Part shown: piece after piece, positions 3,204-60,185 of the stretch
Position numbering within the stretch: position 1 is the stretch's first letter
Layout: the number at the start of each line of letters is the position of its first letter
Assembly: GCA_000091205.1 (NCBI GenBank)
Contig: AP006492.2
Source: Cyanidioschyzon merolae
Lineage: Eukaryota
Reading direction: 5' to 3' (one strand)
Length of the DNA: 64,000 bases
Position numbers and translations under genes: made by a program
Notes under the pieces: generated by a model
The model's database searches: none
What the model was told of the DNA's origin: nothing
Seen by the model: only the letters and a program-made list of their open reading frames with translations

Positions 3204-5726
3204 CTAGTAGGAGACATCCACGAGGCCGATGTGCCAGTAACCGTCGCGACTGAGGCGCCAGTTCGGAAACCCGCCACCACTTCCCCCGGGAGCACGATCC
3301 AGTATCCAGCCACATTCCATGCGCAAAGCGCCGAGCACACGCAACCCTAGTCCGACACTGATAACGCCGGACGCTGTGCTAGACCGCTGAATGGAGCCGG
3401 CGCTAGCTGGGGCATCAACGCCCGAGCTGGTGCTCTCAGCTGAGGCCGAATCCACAACGGTGCCGAGGCGGTGTCCGTGAGCGCCTCGACGGAACAACTT
3501 TGGAAAACGCACGAGATGCGAAGGTGGCTGAATCTCGGATCCCCAGTCCGTGAACGCCACAAACACGAGGCGCTTGTCGAGCGGGTATCGAAACTCTGCG
3601 CAGGTTCTCGCAAACGAGCCTACCTGTCCGAGTGATCCCTCACGCATCCCGCGAACGGTGGCTAATCCTCCGAAGGGATAACGCTCGGACTCGGGCAACG
3701 ATGCACTCGAAACACGTGCTTCAGCCAACAAAGCAACGCAGGCGCGGGCAGGCTGCTCTTCGTCTTGTTCTTGATTCTGGTGTGATGTTTCGGGTTGCTC
3801 GGTTTGTTTCCGACGACGACGCCGCAGGAGACCGCGAATAGGTGGTATTTTCTTGTACACACTGCCGGTGAAGCCAAAACGCGAATATTCTGGATTACTC
3901 GTTGTCACTGGAACCGCGTAGGCCGCATGCAGTGCAAGACGGTAGCCAGCTTGCGGATGGAGCGGATCCGATCGGGTATCACGGATAGCGCTGCTGTTCA
4001 GAACCAGGTGCGTGAAAGAGCGCTCTCGTGCGGTGGACGCTTCAGTCGTCGATTCATCGCGATTCCGTCTCGCTGACGCACCGTCTGCGGAAGCAGGAAG
4101 CGATGAGGACGCTGTCTGACCCGGATTCATTCCCGATGGAAACATTCGAACTTGCTCGCAGAGTACCCCTGTCTGGATATTCCATAGCTGCAGGGTCCGC
4201 TCCATGACGCTTCGCCAGGCAGCTGGTCGCAGCCAGGTTCGCGACGAGCGCCGAGCCTCATCTGTGGGTGCCGACCACAGCTGGGGCGCCATCAACGTAA
4301 CCTCTACCCCGCGACGACTTCCTACCGCCGTACTTCGTGATTCGAAGAGACGCACCTGGTAGCCGCCGGCCTTGGAACCTAGACGTGGATTCTGTAAGAC
4401 GATATGGGCTGCGTCATCGGATCGATCAGGCTTGGATCGGATATCTGCTTGAAAGCGAATCCCTCGGCCAGCGACATTTGCATCCTCCAAGGTTAGGTCT
4501 CCATAGAGCTTACCGCGGGAAAGCGTTATGCCGGGTTCGAAACGATGGAAAGGTCGTTCTCGCACGCGCAAGGTCAGTTCAACGTCACCTATTTCCGCAC
4601 AGCGTTCTGCTTGTGCGACTTGGCCTTCTGCTGCTGGCGAGTCGTGTGGCGTCACGGCGTCAATGACACGTACATCCGCTGTCACGGACTCGAACAGGCC
4701 CAACTGCTGCAGCCGCTGAAAGTGTTGTTCTGTCCAGCGGAACGGGACTTTGCGTGGACATGCCTTTTGCGCCGAACGCGACTTGCGCGAATGTCTCTGG
4801 TGGTCTGGCATTTCCTTCTCAACACCGAGTCCGTCATAGCCCAGGGCCCGGGCAATGACGCTGGCATGCGTCCGACCTGAGCACGGCTCCTGGTTGGCAT
4901 CCACGTATTCCACGAGGACTCTAGCGACGAGCGGCTCGTACGCCTCGAGGACCAGGATACCATCCTTGATAGGCGTATCGGGTGCTCTTCGTACAAGCGC
5001 AAGCGGGTATCCATGCTCGCCATAAAAAGCGTTCAAACTGTCGATTGAACGGCGAATGGCGGTGTAGTCAATGGACGCGTCAGCATTCTGATTAGCCTGA
5101 AGGATTCGATTCACCGCCTGCTCTAGGCGGTCACGTGGTAGCAGCAGACGATCAACGGGTCCACGGAGCACAACCTGGCGAAGTGGGCCTTTCGTCTGAT
5201 CGTTCGGATGTTCCGCGTAGATTTCGGCGGCTTCTTCTTCTGTAGCTGCAGTTGGGACGCTAAGCGCGAGAGCAGTCGGAGCACGCAGCCACACCTGTAC
5301 GGTGTGCCAGCATAGCGTCAGCCACAGCAGAAAACTTCCCCGATTGGGCAAGTCAGGAAAGCCACCAGCCACACCGTCGACGTAGGAGTTGCCTCCTCGG
5401 CCGCCACCGCCACGGAGAGTGCGGTCACCGATCGAACCGCACCAGGACCGTTTCACTCCAGGCTTGGTGGTGTTTCGGTGTCGCTTTCGACGAGAGCGTG
5501 CCATCGAGTCGAGCATTTGACTTTGCCACGAGCAGGTCAAAGGTTCTCCACGCTTCGATAACCACGTGGTGCTGCGGTGCCAGCGCTGCCCGGTACGATC
5601 CGCAGGAAACTGTTTCCTTGGTGCGTTCCGTCTTCGCTCGCGTGATGCAATAGATCGCGTACAGATTTTGAGAGCGTGAGCCCCTACACGAAGCGGATCA
5701 CCCGCCAGGAACCCCAGAACACACAT
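3204..5726 (-). CDS. Omp85-family outer-membrane beta-barrel protein (Toc75/OEP80-like or Sam50-like)
   Basis: The C-terminal part has the Omp85 barrel signature RYPFGGLATVRGMREGSLGQ...FRYPLDKRLVFVAFTDWGS and a terminal SVGLGLRV...DGYWHIGLVDVSY. Upstream is a POTRA-like segment (LRQVVLRGP...LEQAVNRIL...IDSLNAFYGEHGYPLALV...ILVLEAYEPLVARVLVEYVDANQ). The N-terminal extension contains a poly-Gly run (RTLRGGGGRGGNSYVDGVAGG) reminiscent of Toc75 targeting sequences. The ORF-track start at 5747 is GTG; the first ATG is at 5726. The true start may lie further downstream. Confidence 0.7.
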   Translation of the reverse strand: MCVLGFLAGDPLRVGAHALKICTRSIASRERRRNAPRKQFPADRTGQRWHRSTTWLSKRGEPLTCSWQSQMLDSMARSRRKRHRNTTKPGVKRSWCGSIGDRTLRGGGGRGGNSYVDGVAGGFPDLPNRGSFLLWLTLCWHTVQVWLRAPTALALSVPTAATEEEAAEIYAEHPNDQTKGPLRQVVLRGPVDRLLLPRDRLEQAVNRILQANQNADASIDYTAIRRSIDSLNAFYGEHGYPLALVRRAPDTPIKDGILVLEAYEPLVARVLVEYVDANQEPCSGRTHASVIARALGYDGLGVEKEMPDHQRHSRKSRSAQKACPRKVPFRWTEQHFQRLQQLGLFESVTADVRVIDAVTPHDSPAAEGQVAQAERCAEIGDVELTLRVRERPFHRFEPGITLSRGKLYGDLTLEDANVAGRGIRFQADIRSKPDRSDDAAHIVLQNPRLGSKAGGYQVRLFESRSTAVGSRRGVEVTLMAPQLWSAPTDEARRSSRTWLRPAAWRSVMERTLQLWNIQTGVLCEQVRMFPSGMNPGQTASSSLPASADGASARRNRDESTTEASTARERSFTHLVLNSSAIRDTRSDPLHPQAGYRLALHAAYAVPVTTSNPEYSRFGFTGSVYKKIPPIRGLLRRRRRKQTEQPETSHQNQEQDEEQPARACVALLAEARVSSASLPESERYPFGGLATVRGMREGSLGQVGSFARTCAEFRYPLDKRLVFVAFTDWGSEIQPPSHLVRFPKLFRRGAHGHRLGTVVDSASAESTSSGVDAPASAGSIQRSSTASGVISVGLGLRVLGALRMECGWILDRAPGGSGGGFPNWRLSRDGYWHIGLVDVSY

Positions 5727-6070
5727 AGCCCTACGACCCAGTCGCACGAGAACAACACATATCCTCAGCGATACAATGCTTCAGGGCGCGTGCGGCGCCT
5801 TGGCTGGCACAGCTGCTCGGTGTACTTGTCCTCTGAGACTGGTGAGACGTGCTGTTCCTCGACGTCGTTGGCGGTACGGGTCTCATGTTTGGGCTTTTCG
5901 TATAGCTTAGGGGAATTTCATGCGTATTGAGGGATTGAATAGTCCATTTTGCATAGAAGAGTGATCGGAAATCATCCCAAAAATGTCCAGGGTCATGTAG
6001 AGTAGCGGATCGTCGTGATCGTTCACCAAGGGTGCAGGAGAAACTTTCAAGCCATTTCTATACGGTGCTT

Positions 6071-6808: not shown

Positions 6809-8639
6809 AGTTGGTGTGCCCCGTGGCCTTTATCATGCTCGAATCCGGACAAAACAGCGCTCTCGAAAAACACAGGTCACATTGCATCCTGTGTCCCGAA
6901 AATCATTTATGTTGTCGCATGGGGTTTTTATCGAAAAGTTCCAGACGTTTGTGGACAGCTGATAGACCAGGGTCCGCAAATATTGCGAATCGTTGCATGT
7001 CGAGGTGCATCAAGGTGCGAGAAACCCGGTGAGACTTTCTCGAGTTCGAAGCTCTGCGACCTCTCAAGGCGTGCTAAATCTTTTTGCTGTCACAAATGCG
7101 AACGACTAGCCTATGGACACGGTAGCGTCACACTTGCGTTTGCCAACAGAGATGACGCTTTCGACTGGATTCAGCCAGAGAGAATAACTCGGCAAGAAGA
7201 GCAGCGCAACGCCATTCGCAGTTGCGTGCTCCTCGACCGCTGCCGAGTGATGGACAACGACGTTGTCTAACACCAGGACAGAAGCGTGCAGGATGGAGAC
7301 GCCATAAAGTGCTTCGACGAAGGATGAGGTGTTGAAGGACTCTGTCTGATCGGCGATTTCCAAGCGACCGAACGACTGAATCACTGCTCGGAGTGGTGTG
7401 TTCCGAGCGGTCGTTCGTCTCCTCTTGACGAATCGCCATATACCCACTTTAAGTAATATAATGCAGGTCTACCATTGCTCCAGAATAAAGTCTCATCGAG
7501 CGAGACGAGCACCGCTGTTGTACGCGCTTGCGTTTCAGTACCAAATGAAAAATGTGTTGTTCTATGCGCGAAAGGCTCACACAGAACTCGTCATTTTTCT
7601 CTGTGTATTCCGTGTCTAATCATCCTTGCTGGCGTTGACGGTATGGTAATCTCAAATCTTGTGGCCTCTTTGATGGGATATCTTGCAGAATTCACAGAAT
7701 GGAATCAATCGACGAGAAGAGATTCCCCCCGACAGAGATTCATAAGATTTGTTCTGTTTGTACGACATTAAGGATGAGGACCACAAGAACGGCTGTTTAT
7801 ACACCAGCTAATCATAAAATAACAGACTCGTCCAATTCATTTTCTGAAGCTGGCGATGAAGGCTTCAAGTTCTTTCGCGGGCATGTACCAATCTTCCAGC
7901 TGCGTTCTGTCTGTTGAATACCTGCAAGAACAACGAACAAGAATAAAAACACGATGCTGGAATAAGTATTCTAGAATGCACAGCTCCAAGTTCGACGCCC
8001 AGAAAAACAAAACTTTTGCGTGCAGATAGCTCGGTTTCACACGCTGCACGCTGCGTCCGGGCCCCGGAACAGAGCAGCTTGTCGTGTTGTGCACAGCAGT
8101 TGCGGTATGGGTTGCTGGATGTTGAACTCTGCGGCTGGAGCGCACGACCGCGGGACGTTAGCCTCTGCGATGCTGCGTCTAGACCCAGAGCGCGGGCATT
8201 GCTTGACAAGTGCGAGGCGGTGGGACCACGAACTGGAAAAATTCTCGAATACTGCTGTGCGGTAGCGTGTGTGGACGCGCAGGCCAGGAGGTTCTTCTCG
8301 ACCGGCGGCCAGCGCGTCGACGCTTATCGCAGCACCGAGCCCGAATGACGAGATGAATCCCTGTTCTCGTTGACACTCGGAGCTCTCGGTCGGCAAGGTT
8401 GTTTACCGTTGAGCTAGAGCAGCGCAGAAGCGTCTCTCGGGATGACGCCCTGTTTGCAGCACGGCTGCCAGGAACGTAATGGCGGGATACTTTACACCGT
8501 ATCCGGGTGTCACCTAGGTCAACGGATGACGGTATCAGCGGCGATCGTATCGCAAGGCGAAAACTCAGTAGCCTCTACAGCGATATTCTCAGTGAAACAG
8601 AAAATGACCCACGGCCACGGAGTATGAGTATTTATACCC

Positions 8640-9640
8640 ACCTGCAGACGTCTCCCAGTCTTTGTCGACCGGCCGCCTGCCATCGGCTTCAGTTTCTCTT
8701 TGTACACTTCGAACATGGGAGGCTATCCCAGGAATTTGAATGGTGTCAGCTCCCAGGGTCCCGTCTTCAGCACCGCACATCGTCTGGTATGGATGGCGGC
8801 ATCCAAGTCTCGATTCACGAAGTCCATGCGTCTACTGACATTGGTGGAGCTCATCAGTGCAAAGAGTCCACGAACTCGGGCCCTCTGTGCCATTTGGTGC
8901 AGTGCCAGCTCTCCGTGTTTTTCTCTTGCCGAAGCGCTCGGCTGCGCTCTCTCCATCTCGACCTTCTGTAATGGACACCCCAGCGCATCCATTAGATTCC
9001 CTACTTTTGAAAATGAATGCACTTGTTTATGCGCTTAGATGAGGAACCTCCCAGAGCGAGACGGCCTCGTACAAGAGAGGCGACATGTGCCTGGGTGTCA
9101 TCATGTGCTGAACGCTTCAGCGATTCGCTCAGTGCAGCGATCACTACTTTTCAGGATACAAAAATACTCCTTCGGCATGCTTGAACCACGAAGAGAAAGG
9201 AGGAATGAAAAGCATCTTTACCCCCATGGCATTTGCAAAGGCTCGAACGCGAGTAGAATGGTGGACTGCCACGTTGTCGAACACAGGAACGTCGCCAAGC
9301 GTCAGGGAAAGGTCTTCGATGATTCGACCGAGTGCTTGGTGCTGTTATATGAGCCTTCTCTACGAGCGAAGCTGAGGGCGCCGAATGAATCCAATGCACT
9401 TAGAACAGATGATGATATCATCGTTCTCTTCGGCTTCGATTTTACATACTACGTGCTCCCTGTTCCCCGAATACCCAAATACGCTCCGACCGTTTCGTCC
9501 GAGGCGATTCTGAATATCTGAAAAAAAGACGGACATGCCTAAGTTTTATAACGATCGCAAAGATCCAGAAATGCTGTAAGAGTTGCGATTTCGGTGGCAG
9601 ATGTATATGCTTGGACTAGGACTTTTTATTGCGACTGAAT
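8640..9640 (+). repeat. Dispersed repeat R2, copy A (about 1 kb), diverged partner at 55998..56845
   Basis: Nucleotide and ORF-level similarity to 55998..56845 in the same orientation. Examples: SMRLLTLVELISAKSPRTRALCAIWC vs SMRLLLLMELTVSRNPRTRALCAVCC, and on the other strand AQRARVRGLFALMSSTNVSRRMDFVNR vs the copy-B equivalent. The conserved blocks catccattag..ttttgaaaatgaatgcactt and ttgcgactgaatc are present in both copies. Coding potential is broken by frameshifts. Confidence 0.6.
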
Positions 9641-45368: not shown

Positions 45369-46165
45369 AATGCGAGTTGTGCTCCACCGAATAGACGGCC
45401 ATAAGAGCAGCAGTATGAGAGCAGGCCCGCGCACGAAGAATGGTGTCTCCATGCGATGACGCTGGTGTATTCCTGCATGCGTCTAGCGCTGCAGCAATGC
45501 ATTCGCAAGCACCAGGTGTATCCTTCTAACTAGGGTTCAATGGCCGCACTTGTACCTTTGCTAACGATTGCCGTTGACTTTCACTGACGCGGTAACGCGC
45601 ACTCTAAACAGCAGATGACGTTCGCCGTCTACTGGAAAGGGGATACTCCCGCCGGCGCGACTGCCTCCGCAATGCGTTCATATTCAGAAAATGCGAAACG
45701 AGTGCGAACTTGCTCGCGAACGAGGCCATTGCATGCGCTCTATTTTCTCGAAAGAATTACTCGCACGATCCAAAAAGGGATCGGGGATTCTTTCCGCTGA
45801 GCGCGAGCACGAGCGAGCAGCGCTGCGGTTTGCCCTTCGCGCCCTCCACTTTCTATCGGTGGTCGTTTGAAGGACCCTGGGTCATGGTGCGTTGTTTTGG
45901 TGAACCCGCCTGACTCGACGACGCACGCGGCGTGCTAGCTTCGTGCCCACGGAAGAAGCTGTTTGCGGGGCTTGATCTCGGCTCTGTCAGGCAGTCATCA
46001 GGCATAGTCGTTCTGTCTTTTTGATGAAGAACAAGTTCAAAGAACTGGTGTGCCGCAAACCCCCTAAACAAGCTTGATTTTTTCTATGGATGCAATTGCT
46101 CTCATACGTGCAGAGATACGTTTGCTGGATGCATCTGCGAACATCATACAGAATCGTGGATGCGC

Positions 46166-47449
46166 TCAGAGTTTGCCGAGCGCGAGAAGTGCTTCAATAA
46201 TGCCAGCAGCACCCTTTTGTGATGCCTTCACCACCTGGCAACGATCTGGTGCGTTAAAGTTAACCGCCACGTCACCAGAAGCGCTTGGTAACAGAACCAG
46301 CGTTCCACGATTGGCGCGCTCGGCATTCGCAGAGCCCGTTGCACCAGGTTTGAGGTCCGTCCACTGGGATTTTCGAACGTCGGGTGCGAGCGCTTCGAGT
46401 GAGGCCACCGGATCGCTGGACTCAAACACCTGCACAGCATCCTGTAAGAGTGCACTGGATTCCGACCCTACCAGCACCAGGTCGGCGGTAGTTAGTCTCA
46501 TCATCAGCATGATGAACTGAAGGCACTTGCTCATTCTCGCTTCGTCTGGAATCAGGACCAGGTTTCCAGCCAGCGGTGAGACGATACATCGGGTAGCCTC
46601 AAACCCCATCTCTTTCATTTTGCCTTGCACAGACTCGATCAGATGTGCACGGTCAATGGCCTCGTCCGGGTCGCTTCGCCAGGAGTACTCGAGATACGCC
46701 ACTTCTCTTGCGGAAGGATCTGTTAGTAACTTGCGCTTACTCAGCAGTTTCTCATCAAATTCTGGCGTAAGCCATTTTTCAAATGACTCGCGCATCATCC
46801 AAGCGATCGGCTTGGGATCGAAACCAAGGCCGACAGCTGCCATTCGCTGTTCCCAGTACGGATCTGGTGCCACGTAGCCGCGTTGGTAGATCTCAGTGCC
46901 ACAGAGCGTGCAAAGCACGTCAGGCTCAGCCATGATGGGGAAACGCTCAAGAAGCTCCCGTGCTTCCTTGAGAGTTCCCTCAAAGAAATAAACCAGTACA
47001 ATCTGTTGCTTCGTTACTGAGACATGAACCCGTAGGCGTTCGAAAAAGTCAGCAAGGCTCGGATCCGGGCTCGGGCGCTCTTCGTCGTGGTTGTTCGCAC
47101 CGCCAGGGGTGTCTCCGAAGGGCACCATAGCGCCAAGCTCAATGCATAGGAGGCAGCGCCCTGTCCATGGCAATGACCTGGCCTCGGAAGAACCGTCGCT
47201 GGCTATCAGTTGCAAGGCGGACGCGCTCGCTCTCTTTCGCGGCTCAACTAGGCACTTCGCGCAACCATCCGTACCGACCGAAGGTCGCTGGAGCCAAGAT
47301 GCGCTGTTTGCAGGGAACGGCTTCGTCCAGCGCCTCGTTCGAGGTTCGACGTCTCGGTCAGTCCAGTAGTGTCCACTCTGCTTTGCACAAAACGGCGGAA
47401 CAAAGCCCCCTACGAGCTGTTGCGCAGGGCTCCAGCAAAGGCGAGTCAT
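46166..47449 (-). CDS. Sucrose-phosphatase-like HAD-IIB family protein, catalytic motifs apparently degenerate
   Basis: Collinear with plant sucrose-6F-phosphate phosphohydrolase. [54 protein letters not shown] parallels SPP [68 protein letters not shown] parallels [29 protein letters not shown] parallels LACGDSGNDAELF. C-terminal [17 protein letters not shown] parallels ERCAGGIIQAIGHFKLG. The HAD motif-I position reads CIELGAMV rather than DLDHTMV. ATG at 47449. Confidence 0.55.
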   Translation of the reverse strand: [427 protein letters not shown]

Positions 47450-48826
47450 TTGGGGAGTCCTTGACTACGACTCCCGACGCTGCCCGCCTGGAACGCTAGA
47501 GCGCCTCCGTGTGCCCTACGCAACGTTGCCTCGCACGGGTCCAGTGCTCGGCTGTGCTGTATGTGCTCAGACGCCAGGCACAGCAGGCGTCGCGTCCAAG
47601 GGTCCTCCCCGAGACCTCTGTAGCGTTTAAAGCTCAGTTTACCGAAGCGAAACAGACTTCGCAGCGATGGTGCCTATAACAGTGTTCAAAGAGACGCGTT
47701 TCCACCGTACCTGCAACGAGGTCGCATCCGACAACCTCCGTACATCCAGGGGAGTACTGACAAGCGCCTCCGTGTGCCGCACCGCGTCCCTAGCGTCGCG
47801 GCGATTTCTTTCGATGACAATGCGTTTCCGTGGATCAGGGATCCCGGCTTGCGGGATGGATGGGTATTGGCATTCGGGAGAGTTTCGATAATGCAGTGCA
47901 ATACTCCCGAGTTCCATGACCTGTTCTCGGGTGCACCGGTCGTTTTGTGGATTCTACGGTGCGCGGAGCAGCTGCATTACTGCACCCGCCTTGGTGCCTA
48001 AACCGCATGCGCGCATGCATCATGGTGAAAGAGCGGCTTTGCGGTACCAGTGGGAGCGTTGGCTCGAGGCGCTGGATCCATCAGTAGCAAGGCAGTGCCT
48101 GACGCAAAAGGGCGTCTTGCGAGCAACGCTCTCGCAGTGTATTCGCAAATGATGGCCTCGGTCACCGGCACTGCATGTCTTCGCGCGTTTGCAGCCGGTG
48201 AATATGCATGGAAATGGATGAGCGCGTATCTATCGATTTCTGGTGGGCCGAAACGTACACGATTTTCAGGGTACTCATCTATGCAGGCTTTCCAGTATAT
48301 TCTGAGAAGCTTTACAACGGGCGTGTTCTAGGTTTATGCTTTTGAGGTCATTAGGGAGCACGGAGTATCTAACACCCATTTGCAGAGCGGGAGGAGCGGA
48401 ACGTGGTGCACCTGTGTGTGTGCAGCTTTCGCCATTGGATCGAGATTTGTCGTTGCACCCAGATACGTAGCGCTGCTGCAGCGTTCTCTTTGATGACGTT
48501 AGGCGAATTCGCGCATCACGAGCGTGCTACTTATACCTGGAATGTCGTTGGCGGTGAACGACTTGTGCGCCGGCCGCGTCACTAACGCACTTTGCTGCTG
48601 CAGAACGTCACCTATACGCGCAGACGCTGCCTCCTCCTTGAATCTCTGGTCTATTTGCAGGAGTGACTCGGTGCGCTTGCTGCTCAGCACGCGTCGCTGG
48701 TGTCCGCCTCAACGATGCAGAAAGGACGCAGTTTGGACACTTCCTCTGACGTCTGAACACCGAGCGCTCTATCGAGGCACCATGGATCGCGGTCAAGCGC
48801 AACAGCTGCTTTCAGCATGTCATCGA

Positions 48827-49050
48827 GCGCACGGACTGCTTCTCTCATGCTATGTCTATTCGGGTACATGAACGTTGTGTACACTTCATCCAACTGTGGA
48901 GTGTGCGGACTGCTTCTCTCATGCTATGATCATTCGGGTACATGAACGTTGTGTGCACTTCATCCAAGTGTGGAGTGTGCGGACTGCTCGTCGCAACCTG
49001 TGATCATTCGGGTATGTGAACAATGCGGCTACGTCATCCAAGTCAGCCCA
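48827..49050. repeat. Tandem repeat, 74-bp unit x 3, upstream of the AspRS gene
   Basis: cggactgcttctctcatgctatg(t/a)(c/t)(t/c)attcgggtacatgaacgttgtgt(a/g)cacttcatccaa(c/g)tgtggagtgtg begins at about 48832, 48906 and 48980 (74-bp period). The third copy is diverged. Confidence 0.8.
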
Positions 49051-49475
49051 TCCGTGTCCATGACCGAATGCTTGTGCGACTGTGACGAAGTCCGCCGCTG
49101 CGAACGCCTCCTCAGCTGGCACGACGCAAGACTTCACTCACGGGTGCGGCATCATGAACACGATCTCTGGATACCCATTCGGACTAGGCATATGAACGTC
49201 CGGGAGCGCGTTGATCACGCCGCACCTCATCTTCAAGTTCCATCTAAAATCAACAGCACTACCAACAACCATACTTTTCTTCAGTAGTACTGGATCGTTC
49301 ATTCGATCCTTTATGTGTGTCGAGCCTGGGATGAGCGTCGGTGGCACGCAGCCCCACTGGATCGGCGCAATGGACGACGACGACGACCGCAGCCCTCATC
49401 CACGCGCTTTCGCGAACGGCACGTCGTCGGCCTGCTCCGTAACACGGGCTCGTACACGTACGCCTTCTGGTGAGC

Positions 49476-59342: not shown

Positions 59343-60185
59343 ATGATAACCGGTGAAACCGAACCTGCCTGTGTGGAGGATGCGAGTCAGCTGGCGGAGC
59401 AACGTAACGGGGCACCGGTGATGGAAGCCGGCTGCGCTGCCGTACCCGTGGAAGCCAACGCTACCAAGCGAGGGTACTGGCGCCAGCGGACCCTTCACTC
59501 GTGGTTTATAGGCCGAAAACCACAGCGAACCTGTATAGCTGTCGATATTGATGAAGTGCTGGCGTTTTTTGTACCGGAACTCTGTGCTTTTCATAACAAG
59601 CGGTACGGAACGCGGCTGCAAGCCACTGATTTCCACAGTTATCGCTTTGCGGAGGTCTGGGGCGGTACCGACACGGACGCGATTCGAAAAGTGCACGAGT
59701 TTTTTCGCACGCCTGCGTTTCAGGAGCTCCAGCCGATACCAGGTGCAAAGCAGGTCCTTCAGTCGCGGCTGGCTCGCTTTCGCTTCGTCGTGGTGACCTC
59801 TCGTCAGTTGGTGATTGAGCAAGAAACGCGCGCATGGTTAGACAAGCACTTTAGCGGTATTTTTGAAGCAATCTACCTTGGTAATCAATGGGCGCTACAC
59901 CCCAATGGTGAACACGGTACCGGAGTCGGTAGCGCTGCACAGGAACCGCAGCGTCTCTTTGCGAACAGGCGCCGCAAGTCCCAAGTCTGTAAGGCCTGCG
60001 GCGCGGCCGTCTTAATCGACGACTTGCCCCACAATCTGCTGGATTGCTCGGAAAATGGTGTGTTTGGTGTTCTTTTTGACTTTCAGGGGCAGTACGGATG
60101 GAGTAAATCTCCTGCATTCGAGTCAAAGGATATCGCCGTTGTGCATTCATGGGAAGCGGTAGGAGAGCTCCTTGACCGGCTCTAG
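59343..60185 (+). CDS. HAD-superfamily 5'(3')-deoxyribonucleotidase-like protein (NT5C/NT5M family)
   Basis: IAVDIDEVLAFF (HAD motif I DxDxV; compare VLVDMDGVLADF), LQPIPGAKQVL (LEPIPGALDAV), FVVVTSRQ (VFICTSP), TRAWLDKHFSGIFEAIYL (KYRWVEQHLGPQFVERIIL), AAVLIDDLPHN (DLLIDDKDT). ATG at 59343. Confidence 0.65.
   Translation: MITGETEPACVEDASQLAEQRNGAPVMEAGCAAVPVEANATKRGYWRQRTLHSWFIGRKPQRTCIAVDIDEVLAFFVPELCAFHNKRYGTRLQATDFHSYRFAEVWGGTDTDAIRKVHEFFRTPAFQELQPIPGAKQVLQSRLARFRFVVVTSRQLVIEQETRAWLDKHFSGIFEAIYLGNQWALHPNGEHGTGVGSAAQEPQRLFANRRRKSQVCKACGAAVLIDDLPHNLLDCSENGVFGVLFDFQGQYGWSKSPAFESKDIAVVHSWEAVGELLDRL

Follow-up and report, generated by a model that had tools for sequence, protein, structure and literature searches.

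The 64,000-nucleotide stretch of Cyanidioschyzon merolae DNA analysed here (contig AP006492.2; hereafter the window) carries on its minus strand, at 46166..47449, a single open reading frame (ORF) of 427 amino acids plus a stop codon. The product is a full-length exact match to CYME_CMJ217C of C. merolae 10D (BAM80332.1, XP_005534939.1, UniProt M1VCM4), which we call CMJ217C. The deposited name is "hypothetical protein", and the automatic UniProt name of M1VCM4 is "Sucrose phosphatase-like domain-containing protein". Data Set 3 of PMC13353863 records no intron for this gene in any of three cyanidiophycean genomes. The ORF list, the exact database match and this listing together define a complete, intron-less coding sequence. 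We suggest that it encodes a pseudo-phosphatase with the fold of sucrose-phosphate phosphatase (SPP). An earlier reading of the DNA, referred to here as the original prediction, had proposed such a stand-alone pseudo-enzyme, and the motif loss, selection and expression described below bear it out.

Similarity to sucrose-phosphate phosphatase

The likeness to SPP is found by profile, profile-profile and structural comparison. The Pfam S6PP profile (PF05116) matches CMJ217C at 27.9 bits (E 2.2e-6), above its gathering threshold of 20.3. With a family profile of 26 sequences, hhalign aligns core residues 55-333 with residues 32-241 of the SPP of Synechocystis sp. PCC 6803 (1S2O) at a probability of 98.3 % (E 2e-14), and Foldseek returns 1S2O as the best PDB match (E 1.9e-12). 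Thus, the similarity claimed in the original prediction is real and lies far outside what chance would give. The claim that it is collinear over some 300 residues holds when profiles or structures are compared or when intermediate sequences are used, and fails for the direct hidden Markov model match, which is confined to amino acids (aa) 142-205 (profile positions 27-90 of 247). The two sequence blocks that had been quoted as diagnostic, one in the cap domain and one at the C-terminus, are both present, at aa 176-201 and aa 412-427.

The link to SPP was detected because intermediate homologs, hhalign or structure were used, a direct sequence search being too thin: neither a single-sequence nor a 3-sequence profile search with CMJ217C recovered SPP from the PDB sequences. 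The mesophilic homologs bridge this gap. They align with 1S2O and cover nearly the full S6PP profile (positions 2-246 of 247), with scores of up to 88.6 bits (58-89 bits for P0007-P0012). Against the equivalog models, CMJ217C stays below the cut-offs, with 21.8 bits against 183.65 for SPP (NCBIfam TIGR01485) and 16.6 bits against 209.75 for the C-terminal SPP-like domain of sucrose-phosphate synthase (SPS; TIGR02471). Its homologs reach 39-63 and 35-66 bits, respectively, which is also far under both cut-offs. A check for the plant-type S6PP_C domain (PF08472) gave no match in CMJ217C at E up to 10, and the Pfam scan found no glycosyltransferase domain; the SPP-like protein stands alone.

The AlphaFold2 model used here was built on the 26-sequence alignment and is confident; a model from three sequences, with a predicted local distance difference test score (pLDDT) of 50, was discarded. 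In the model used, the core is a Rossmannoid alpha/beta fold, and the cap, likewise alpha/beta, is inserted after motif II and before motif III, which is the arrangement of HAD subclass IIB (C2B cap). Judged by this model, the whole SPP fold is kept in CMJ217C. Profile-profile and structural comparison, or the use of intermediates, shows the collinearity with SPP to begin at strand beta-1 and to last as far as the C-terminal helix. This helix (aa 412-427, 46169..46216, minus strand) is homologous to HAGAILEAIAHFDFLS of SPP in the hhalign and MAFFT alignments and appears in the model at core residues 321-332. About 60 residues (about aa 343-402; 46244..46423, minus strand) are inserted after motif IV and ahead of the last core strands, in columns 450-530 of the family alignment. 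This insertion is specific to Cyanidioschyzon, Cyanidiococcus and Cyanidium, since only the window protein and P0002-P0005 have residues in these columns. The model is less confident there, with pLDDT values of 61-81.

Degenerate catalytic motifs

The four HAD motifs were placed with a MAFFT alignment of the family including 1S2O and with hhalign, and residue numbers are those of full-length CMJ217C. The roles of SPP residues D9, D11, T41, K163, D186 and D190 are those that the HAD motifs have in general and, reportedly, those described for SPP by Fieulaine et al. (2005). All four blocks named in the original prediction (CIELGAMV, YFFEGT, RMSKCL and GSESSA) proved to be correctly located, and all are substituted.

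Strand beta-1 (LLCIE, aa 100-104) and motif I together occupy aa 100-108 (47126..47152, minus strand); the model places a strand at core residues 6-12. In the MAFFT alignment, the stretch stands against LLLISDLDNTW of 1S2O. The nucleophile D9 is replaced by E104 (codon 47138-47140), the acid/base D11 by G106 and T13 by M108. The pattern hhhhDxDx[TV] is absent, and the orthologs have ELR and ELG at this place. In motif II (YFFEGT, aa 154-159; 46973..46990, minus strand; hhalign and MAFFT), T41 of SPP corresponds to F156 where a Ser or Thr is expected. The Ser/Thr is retained in most mesophilic homologs and is Phe in Cyanidioschyzon, Cyanidiococcus and Cyanidium.

The same two alignments place motif III at aa 301-308 (PDEARMSK; 46526..46549, minus strand) and motif IV at aa 328-333 (GSESSA; 46451..46468, minus strand). 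In motif III, K163 is replaced by M306 (codon 46532-46534), so that neither Lys nor Arg is found. Across the family this column holds M, I, V, T, S, A, G, K or L. The Lys of RMSKCL lies two residues downstream of the K163 position and is not conserved in the orthologs. In motif IV, VGSESSA stands against CGDSGND of SPP: the glycine is kept (G185 of SPP, G328 here), D186 is replaced by S329, and D190 falls on A333 in the MAFFT alignment or on a Leu in hhalign. D190 has no acidic counterpart. Both Asp residues of the Mg2+-binding pair are missing, as is the nucleophilic Asp, just as had been predicted.

The degeneracy extends to the whole family. None of 21 members has the full set of catalytic motifs, and the positions of Asp+2, Lys163, Asp186 and Asp190 vary freely among them. 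The nucleophile position holds Glu in 14 members, Asp in five and Gly or Gln in the other two.

A hydrophobic strand followed by DxDx[TV] occurs in no frame of the interval 45400-49400. We therefore rejected a hidden exon or a frameshift that would restore DxDxT, for which the original prediction had advised a check: no such strand lies nearby, the ORF has its own beta-1, and the gene is listed as intron-free.

A red-algal family with its own signature

CMJ217C is more than a peculiarity of a single genome: the original prediction had overlooked a family across Rhodophyta with a conserved signature of its own. The family counts at least 23 clusters, the relatives found in a profile search of 1.84 billion representatives. 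Members with a species name are known from Cyanidium caldarium, Galdieria phlegrea, Rhodosorus marinus, Gracilaria domingensis and Eucheuma denticulatum, and there is an MMETSP transcript in addition. Syntenic orthologs, P0002 and P0003 (57-59 % identity), lie on hot-spring metagenome and SRA contigs; they probably belong to Cyanidiococcus and a relative and keep their ABC-F and aspartyl-tRNA synthetase (AspRS) neighbours. The C. caldarium ortholog, CDCA09G2782, is about 38 % identical. OrthoFinder placed the proteins in one orthogroup, single-copy in Galdieria partita, C. caldarium, Cyanidiococcus yangmingshanensis and C. merolae (PMC13353863).

A pattern-based scan for the family signature in 185,579 genomes of bacteria and archaea, which is weak negative evidence, gave no relative. 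Because the representatives yielded only 23 clusters and no prokaryote matched the pattern, the family is, on present evidence, narrow and rhodophyte-centred. Two word-indexed homolog searches with family alignments added almost nothing new, and were probably swamped by low-complexity words. The MMETSP transcript (P0017/P0028) and P0024 are divergent members, with which the family may reach past the named red algae. P0017 has a DxD at motif I (GVDLDVL) and keeps the Thr of motif II; motifs III and IV are missing.

The signature (aa 176-223; 46781..46924, minus strand) starts where beta-3 ends and extends across the hinge as far as the first helices of the cap; it was drawn from the invariant and near-invariant columns of the family alignment. 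It reads PD..C.L.G.EIYQRGY..PDPYW......(W/F)DPKP..W.....F, or, in another notation, G-x-E-[IL]-Y-Q-R-G-Y-x-x-P-D-P-Y-W ... W-D-P-K-P-x-x-W ... F. Its invariant or near-invariant residues are D177, G184, Q189, Y192, P195, D196, P197, Y198, W199, K213, P214, W217 and F223. Outside this region, K277, E280, G282, P301, F312 and G328 are conserved. Thus, throughout the family, conservation has moved away from the catalytic motifs and now centres on the signature in hinge and cap. The hinge and first cap region of HAD enzymes with a C2B cap shapes the substrate pocket. Family members score about equally against the SPP (TIGR01485) and SPS-C (TIGR02471) models. We place the family on a branch of its own within the S6PP clan.

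The signature can be used to correct annotations, including at least one enzyme name. The member from Gracilaria domingensis (P0018, KAI0565017.1) is deposited as "Sucrose-6F-phosphate phosphohydrolase". It has neither Asp+2 in motif I nor Lys in motif III, and the Asp pair of motif IV is missing as well; the name is probably an over-annotation.

Selection and expression

In the core of the protein, the window gene differs from its orthologs by a proportion of nonsynonymous differences (pN) of 0.26 and of synonymous differences (pS) of 0.77-0.79, the synonymous sites being saturated. Between the orthologs on contigs L001 and L003, the ratio of nonsynonymous to synonymous substitution rates (dN/dS) of the core is 0.15. 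C. merolae and four other lineages have an uninterrupted ORF.

Across three strains or phases of C. merolae, the CMJ217C transcript is present at 85-130 transcripts per million (TPM), and that of the Cc. yangmingshanensis ortholog is present at 85-107 TPM; the latter protein was found in the proteome of diploid and haploid cells alike (PMC13353863). Transcripts of the ortholog also occur in natural mats, with no response to 45 versus 30 °C (PMC13200283). CMJ217C is under purifying selection, is expressed and is not decaying. The fold is kept, the catalytic residues are lost, and the gene is selected and expressed, which is our operational definition of a pseudo-enzyme. Because the catalytic residues are absent and selection and expression are nevertheless present, a pseudo-enzyme is the best reading of the gene.

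The N-terminal presequence

The original prediction had described an unrelated N-terminus of 110 residues. Since beta-1 begins at aa 100, this part is about 99 residues long (47153..47449, minus strand), and it is a fast-evolving basic presequence and not a domain. It was recognised by its open frame, poor conservation and composition. In all three lineages of the Cyanidioschyzon/Cyanidiococcus type, the frame remains open ahead of beta-1 and reaches an ATG 87-99 codons before it; the sequence of this part is barely alignable. Its pN is 0.53, and its dN/dS is 0.76 against 0.15 for the core.

All complete family members have a presequence of 23-99 residues, which ends directly before the K/R-LLVVEL strand. 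These presequences are basic (R+K 4-15) and rich in Ser, Thr and Ala, with D+E mostly 0-3; that of CMJ217C has 14 R+K against 7 D+E. Most members, orthologs and mesophilic red-algal homologs alike, have [AS]-F-[VIL] within the first 4-11 residues, as in MSAFV, MTGFI, MSHAFV, MIAFI, MAAAFV, MESAFV and MKNAAFV. The orthologs start with MSAFV or MTGFI. In rhodophytes and glaucophytes, the plastid-targeting determinant is a motif based on F, or on another bulky aromatic residue, at the very N-terminus (PMC7038456). For the ortholog, SignalP is negative and no transmembrane segments are predicted (PMC13353863). Because of the F-motif, the basic and acid-poor composition and the end at beta-1, we read the N-terminus of about 99 residues as probably a plastid transit peptide.

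Proposed role and alternative explanations

We propose, with a probability of about 60 %, that CMJ217C is a nuclear-encoded, non-catalytic descendant of SPP, with the fold of HAD subclass IIB, that serves as a binding module in the plastid. In this proposal, the presequence would direct the protein into the plastid and would be cleaved just before strand beta-1. The mature protein would form no aspartyl-phosphate intermediate and bind no catalytic Mg2+. The former substrate cleft between core and cap would have become a binding module for a ligand, a sugar or another metabolite, or for a partner protein, with a regulatory or scaffolding role. The gene would descend from the sucrose-synthesis genes of the cyanobacterial endosymbiont, its source being either SPP itself or the SPP-like domain of SPS.

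A more specific version of this proposal is speculative, and we offer it tentatively. CMJ217C could be a relic of the endosymbiont sucrose pathway that was kept across red algae after sucrose synthesis had been lost. A plastid "dead" SPP with a re-tooled cleft could then act as a stromal metabolite sensor or as the regulatory subunit of some plastid enzyme or complex. If so, it would be a rhodophyte-specific control point of carbon partitioning. Sucrose use is not known from red algae.

Several points weigh against the proposal of a plastid binding module. The signature residues are placed along the cleft by analogy with other HAD enzymes that have a C2B cap. Expression is constitutive, with no difference between the 2n and n phases (PMC13353863), and thus gives no hint on function. 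CMJ217C starts with MTRLCW, which has a Trp at position 6 and not a Phe, and its presequence is unusually long, with seven acidic residues in 99. Thus, targeting to the plastid rather than the mitochondrion is not secure for CMJ217C, and mitochondrial or dual targeting is possible on these features. The loss of activity is judged from motif loss only. In addition, 19 of the 21 members have retained an acidic side chain (Glu or Asp) where the nucleophile would be. Its retention could reflect residual or altered chemistry, or the binding of a metal or ligand.

This last point leads to the main rival, altered catalysis around the conserved Glu/Asp. Here CMJ217C would still be an enzyme, a divergent hydrolase or transferase that works by a non-classical mechanism through Glu104 and newly conserved polar side chains in hinge and cap (Q189, Y192, D196, Y198, K213, K277 and E280). 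We consider this unlikely. It would require catalysis by a protein that has lost the acid/base Asp, the Asp pair for Mg and both the Thr and the Lys that bind phosphate, with unconserved replacements, and in a family where two members have Gly or Gln in place of the nucleophile. A change of the HAD nucleophile from Asp to Glu generally abolishes activity. On the side of an enzyme, besides the acidic residue itself, are the strong purifying selection and the clustering of the invariant polar residues where HAD enzymes with a C2B cap form their substrate-specificity loop.

Alternatively, CMJ217C could be a cytosolic partner, regulatory or scaffolding, of the synthesis of sucrose or of a floridoside-type solute, in the way in which the SPP-like domain of SPS has been proposed to dock SPP. 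The original prediction had suggested a link of this kind. The analogy with the inactive SPS domain is apt; the link to sucrose or floridoside metabolism found no support. No sugar-metabolism gene, including SPS, SPP and TPS-like genes, is present among the 20 Pfam-scanned ORFs of at least 200 amino acids (of 24 in the window), and we found no literature tying CMJ217C or red-algal SPP-like proteins to sugar metabolism, and nothing relevant in main texts on SPS or SPP of Cyanidioschyzon or Galdieria. The scores far under the SPP and SPS-C equivalog cut-offs and the organelle-type presequence that ends at beta-1 in every complete family member also speak against a cytosolic partner. Floridoside synthesis is cytosolic, and a plastid location would therefore put CMJ217C in a separate compartment. 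For these reasons, this alternative seems improbable to us.

Finally, we considered an artefact: either the gene is decaying, or its annotation is wrong and the true catalytic exon sits at another place or is masked by a frameshift. This would account for the absent motifs and the weak and partial direct match. Within the limits of sequence analysis, it can be dismissed: five lineages have an unbroken ORF (57-59 % and about 38 % identity), with a dN/dS of 0.15, the model is a complete fold with its own beta-1, no DxDxT strand lies nearby, and there is a transcript of about 100 TPM, an orthologous protein seen by mass spectrometry and no listed intron.

Comparison with known systems

Relative to the SPP of Synechocystis (1S2O), CMJ217C carries D9E, D11G, T13M, T41F, K163M and D186S and has no D190. 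Its hinge and cap contain a 2-residue insertion and the new invariant signature, and it further has the insertion of about 60 residues after motif IV and the presequence of about 99 residues. Plant SPP (S6PP plus S6PP_C) has the N-terminal S6PP-type HAD domain in common with CMJ217C, in which no S6PP_C (PF08472) was detected. Plant SPPs are reported to be active cytosolic dimers (PMC5113954).

The closest functional parallels are offered by two-domain SPS, with its inactive SPP-like domain, and by trehalose synthase, whose regulatory subunits are TPP-like (5HUS). The SPP-like C-terminal domain of Synechocystis SPS is non-functional (PMC4390843), and the inactive domain of SPS has been proposed to dock SPP (PMC4493782). 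In this SPP-like (PHD) domain (TIGR02471; plant SPS, TIGR02468), as in CMJ217C, a sugar-phosphatase fold is kept after catalytic loss. CMJ217C differs in that it is not fused to a glycosyltransferase, has its own signature and is predicted to be organellar, and its family scores 16.6-66 bits against the cut-off of 209.75. The TPP-like domains of Tps3/Tsl1 (5HUS) and of plant class II TPS belong to the trehalose-phosphatase subfamily and not to S6PP. These are large multidomain cytosolic proteins, structurally much farther from CMJ217C than SPP is.

Pseudo-enzymes with a sugar-phosphatase fold are known regulators, as in the SPS C-terminal domain, Tps3/Tsl1 and class II TPS. The CMJ217C family would add one that stands alone, is probably organellar and single-copy, and is conserved from Cyanidiophyceae to florideophytes. 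In the main texts of the literature, we found no description of the family, its catalytic degeneracy, its signature or its targeting. HAD pseudo-phosphatases were already known, and the SPP-like domain was already annotated automatically. What is new is a stand-alone, probably plastid-targeted and pan-rhodophyte dead SPP. C. merolae has a minimal genome of low redundancy and routine homologous recombination, and is thus a tractable organism for a protein that is unknown across a whole lineage.

Genomic neighbourhood

The window has about 55 % G+C, and its eukaryotic genes are intron-less and far apart. CMJ217C is flanked by genes for an ABC-F ATPase (CMJ216C) and the cytoplasmic AspRS (CMJ218C). 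On the Cyanidiococcus-like metagenome contig L001, a Rieske/PetC gene (8336-9130) lies between the AspRS gene and the SPP-like gene; the counterpart interval in the window is 47450-49470. We rejected PetC as a context of CMJ217C, since tblastn found no PetC anywhere in the C. merolae window. The presence or absence of PetC is a local synteny difference between the genera.

The exact 16-mer AGCGCCTCCGTGTGCC occurs at 47500-47515 and 47763-47778, that is, 51 and 314 nucleotides upstream of the CMJ217C start codon. It has no other copy in the 64 kb, where about 0.03 occurrences would be expected by chance, and it may be a promoter or untranslated-region element. The ORF-poor gap of 2 kb between CMJ217C and the AspRS gene also holds a 74-nucleotide unit in about 2.9 tandem copies (48825-49046), the later copies being 89 % and 68 % identical to the first. 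Small ORFs on the minus strand over this repeat (48684-48893 and 48919-49137) reiterate the peptide motif F[MT]YPN.H..R.AVR.L.

Two other genes of the window touch on the subjects discussed above. At 59343-60185 (plus strand) lies a further gene of the HAD superfamily, which encodes a homolog of NT5C-type 5'(3')-deoxyribonucleotidase (PF06941, 58 bits). At 3204-5747 (minus strand), a gene encodes an 847-residue protein of the Omp85 superfamily (PF01103), a candidate barrel of the plastid Toc75/Oep80 type or of the mitochondrial Sam50 type. Red-type Toc75/Oep80 is the supposed receptor of transit peptides with an F-motif (PMC7038456).

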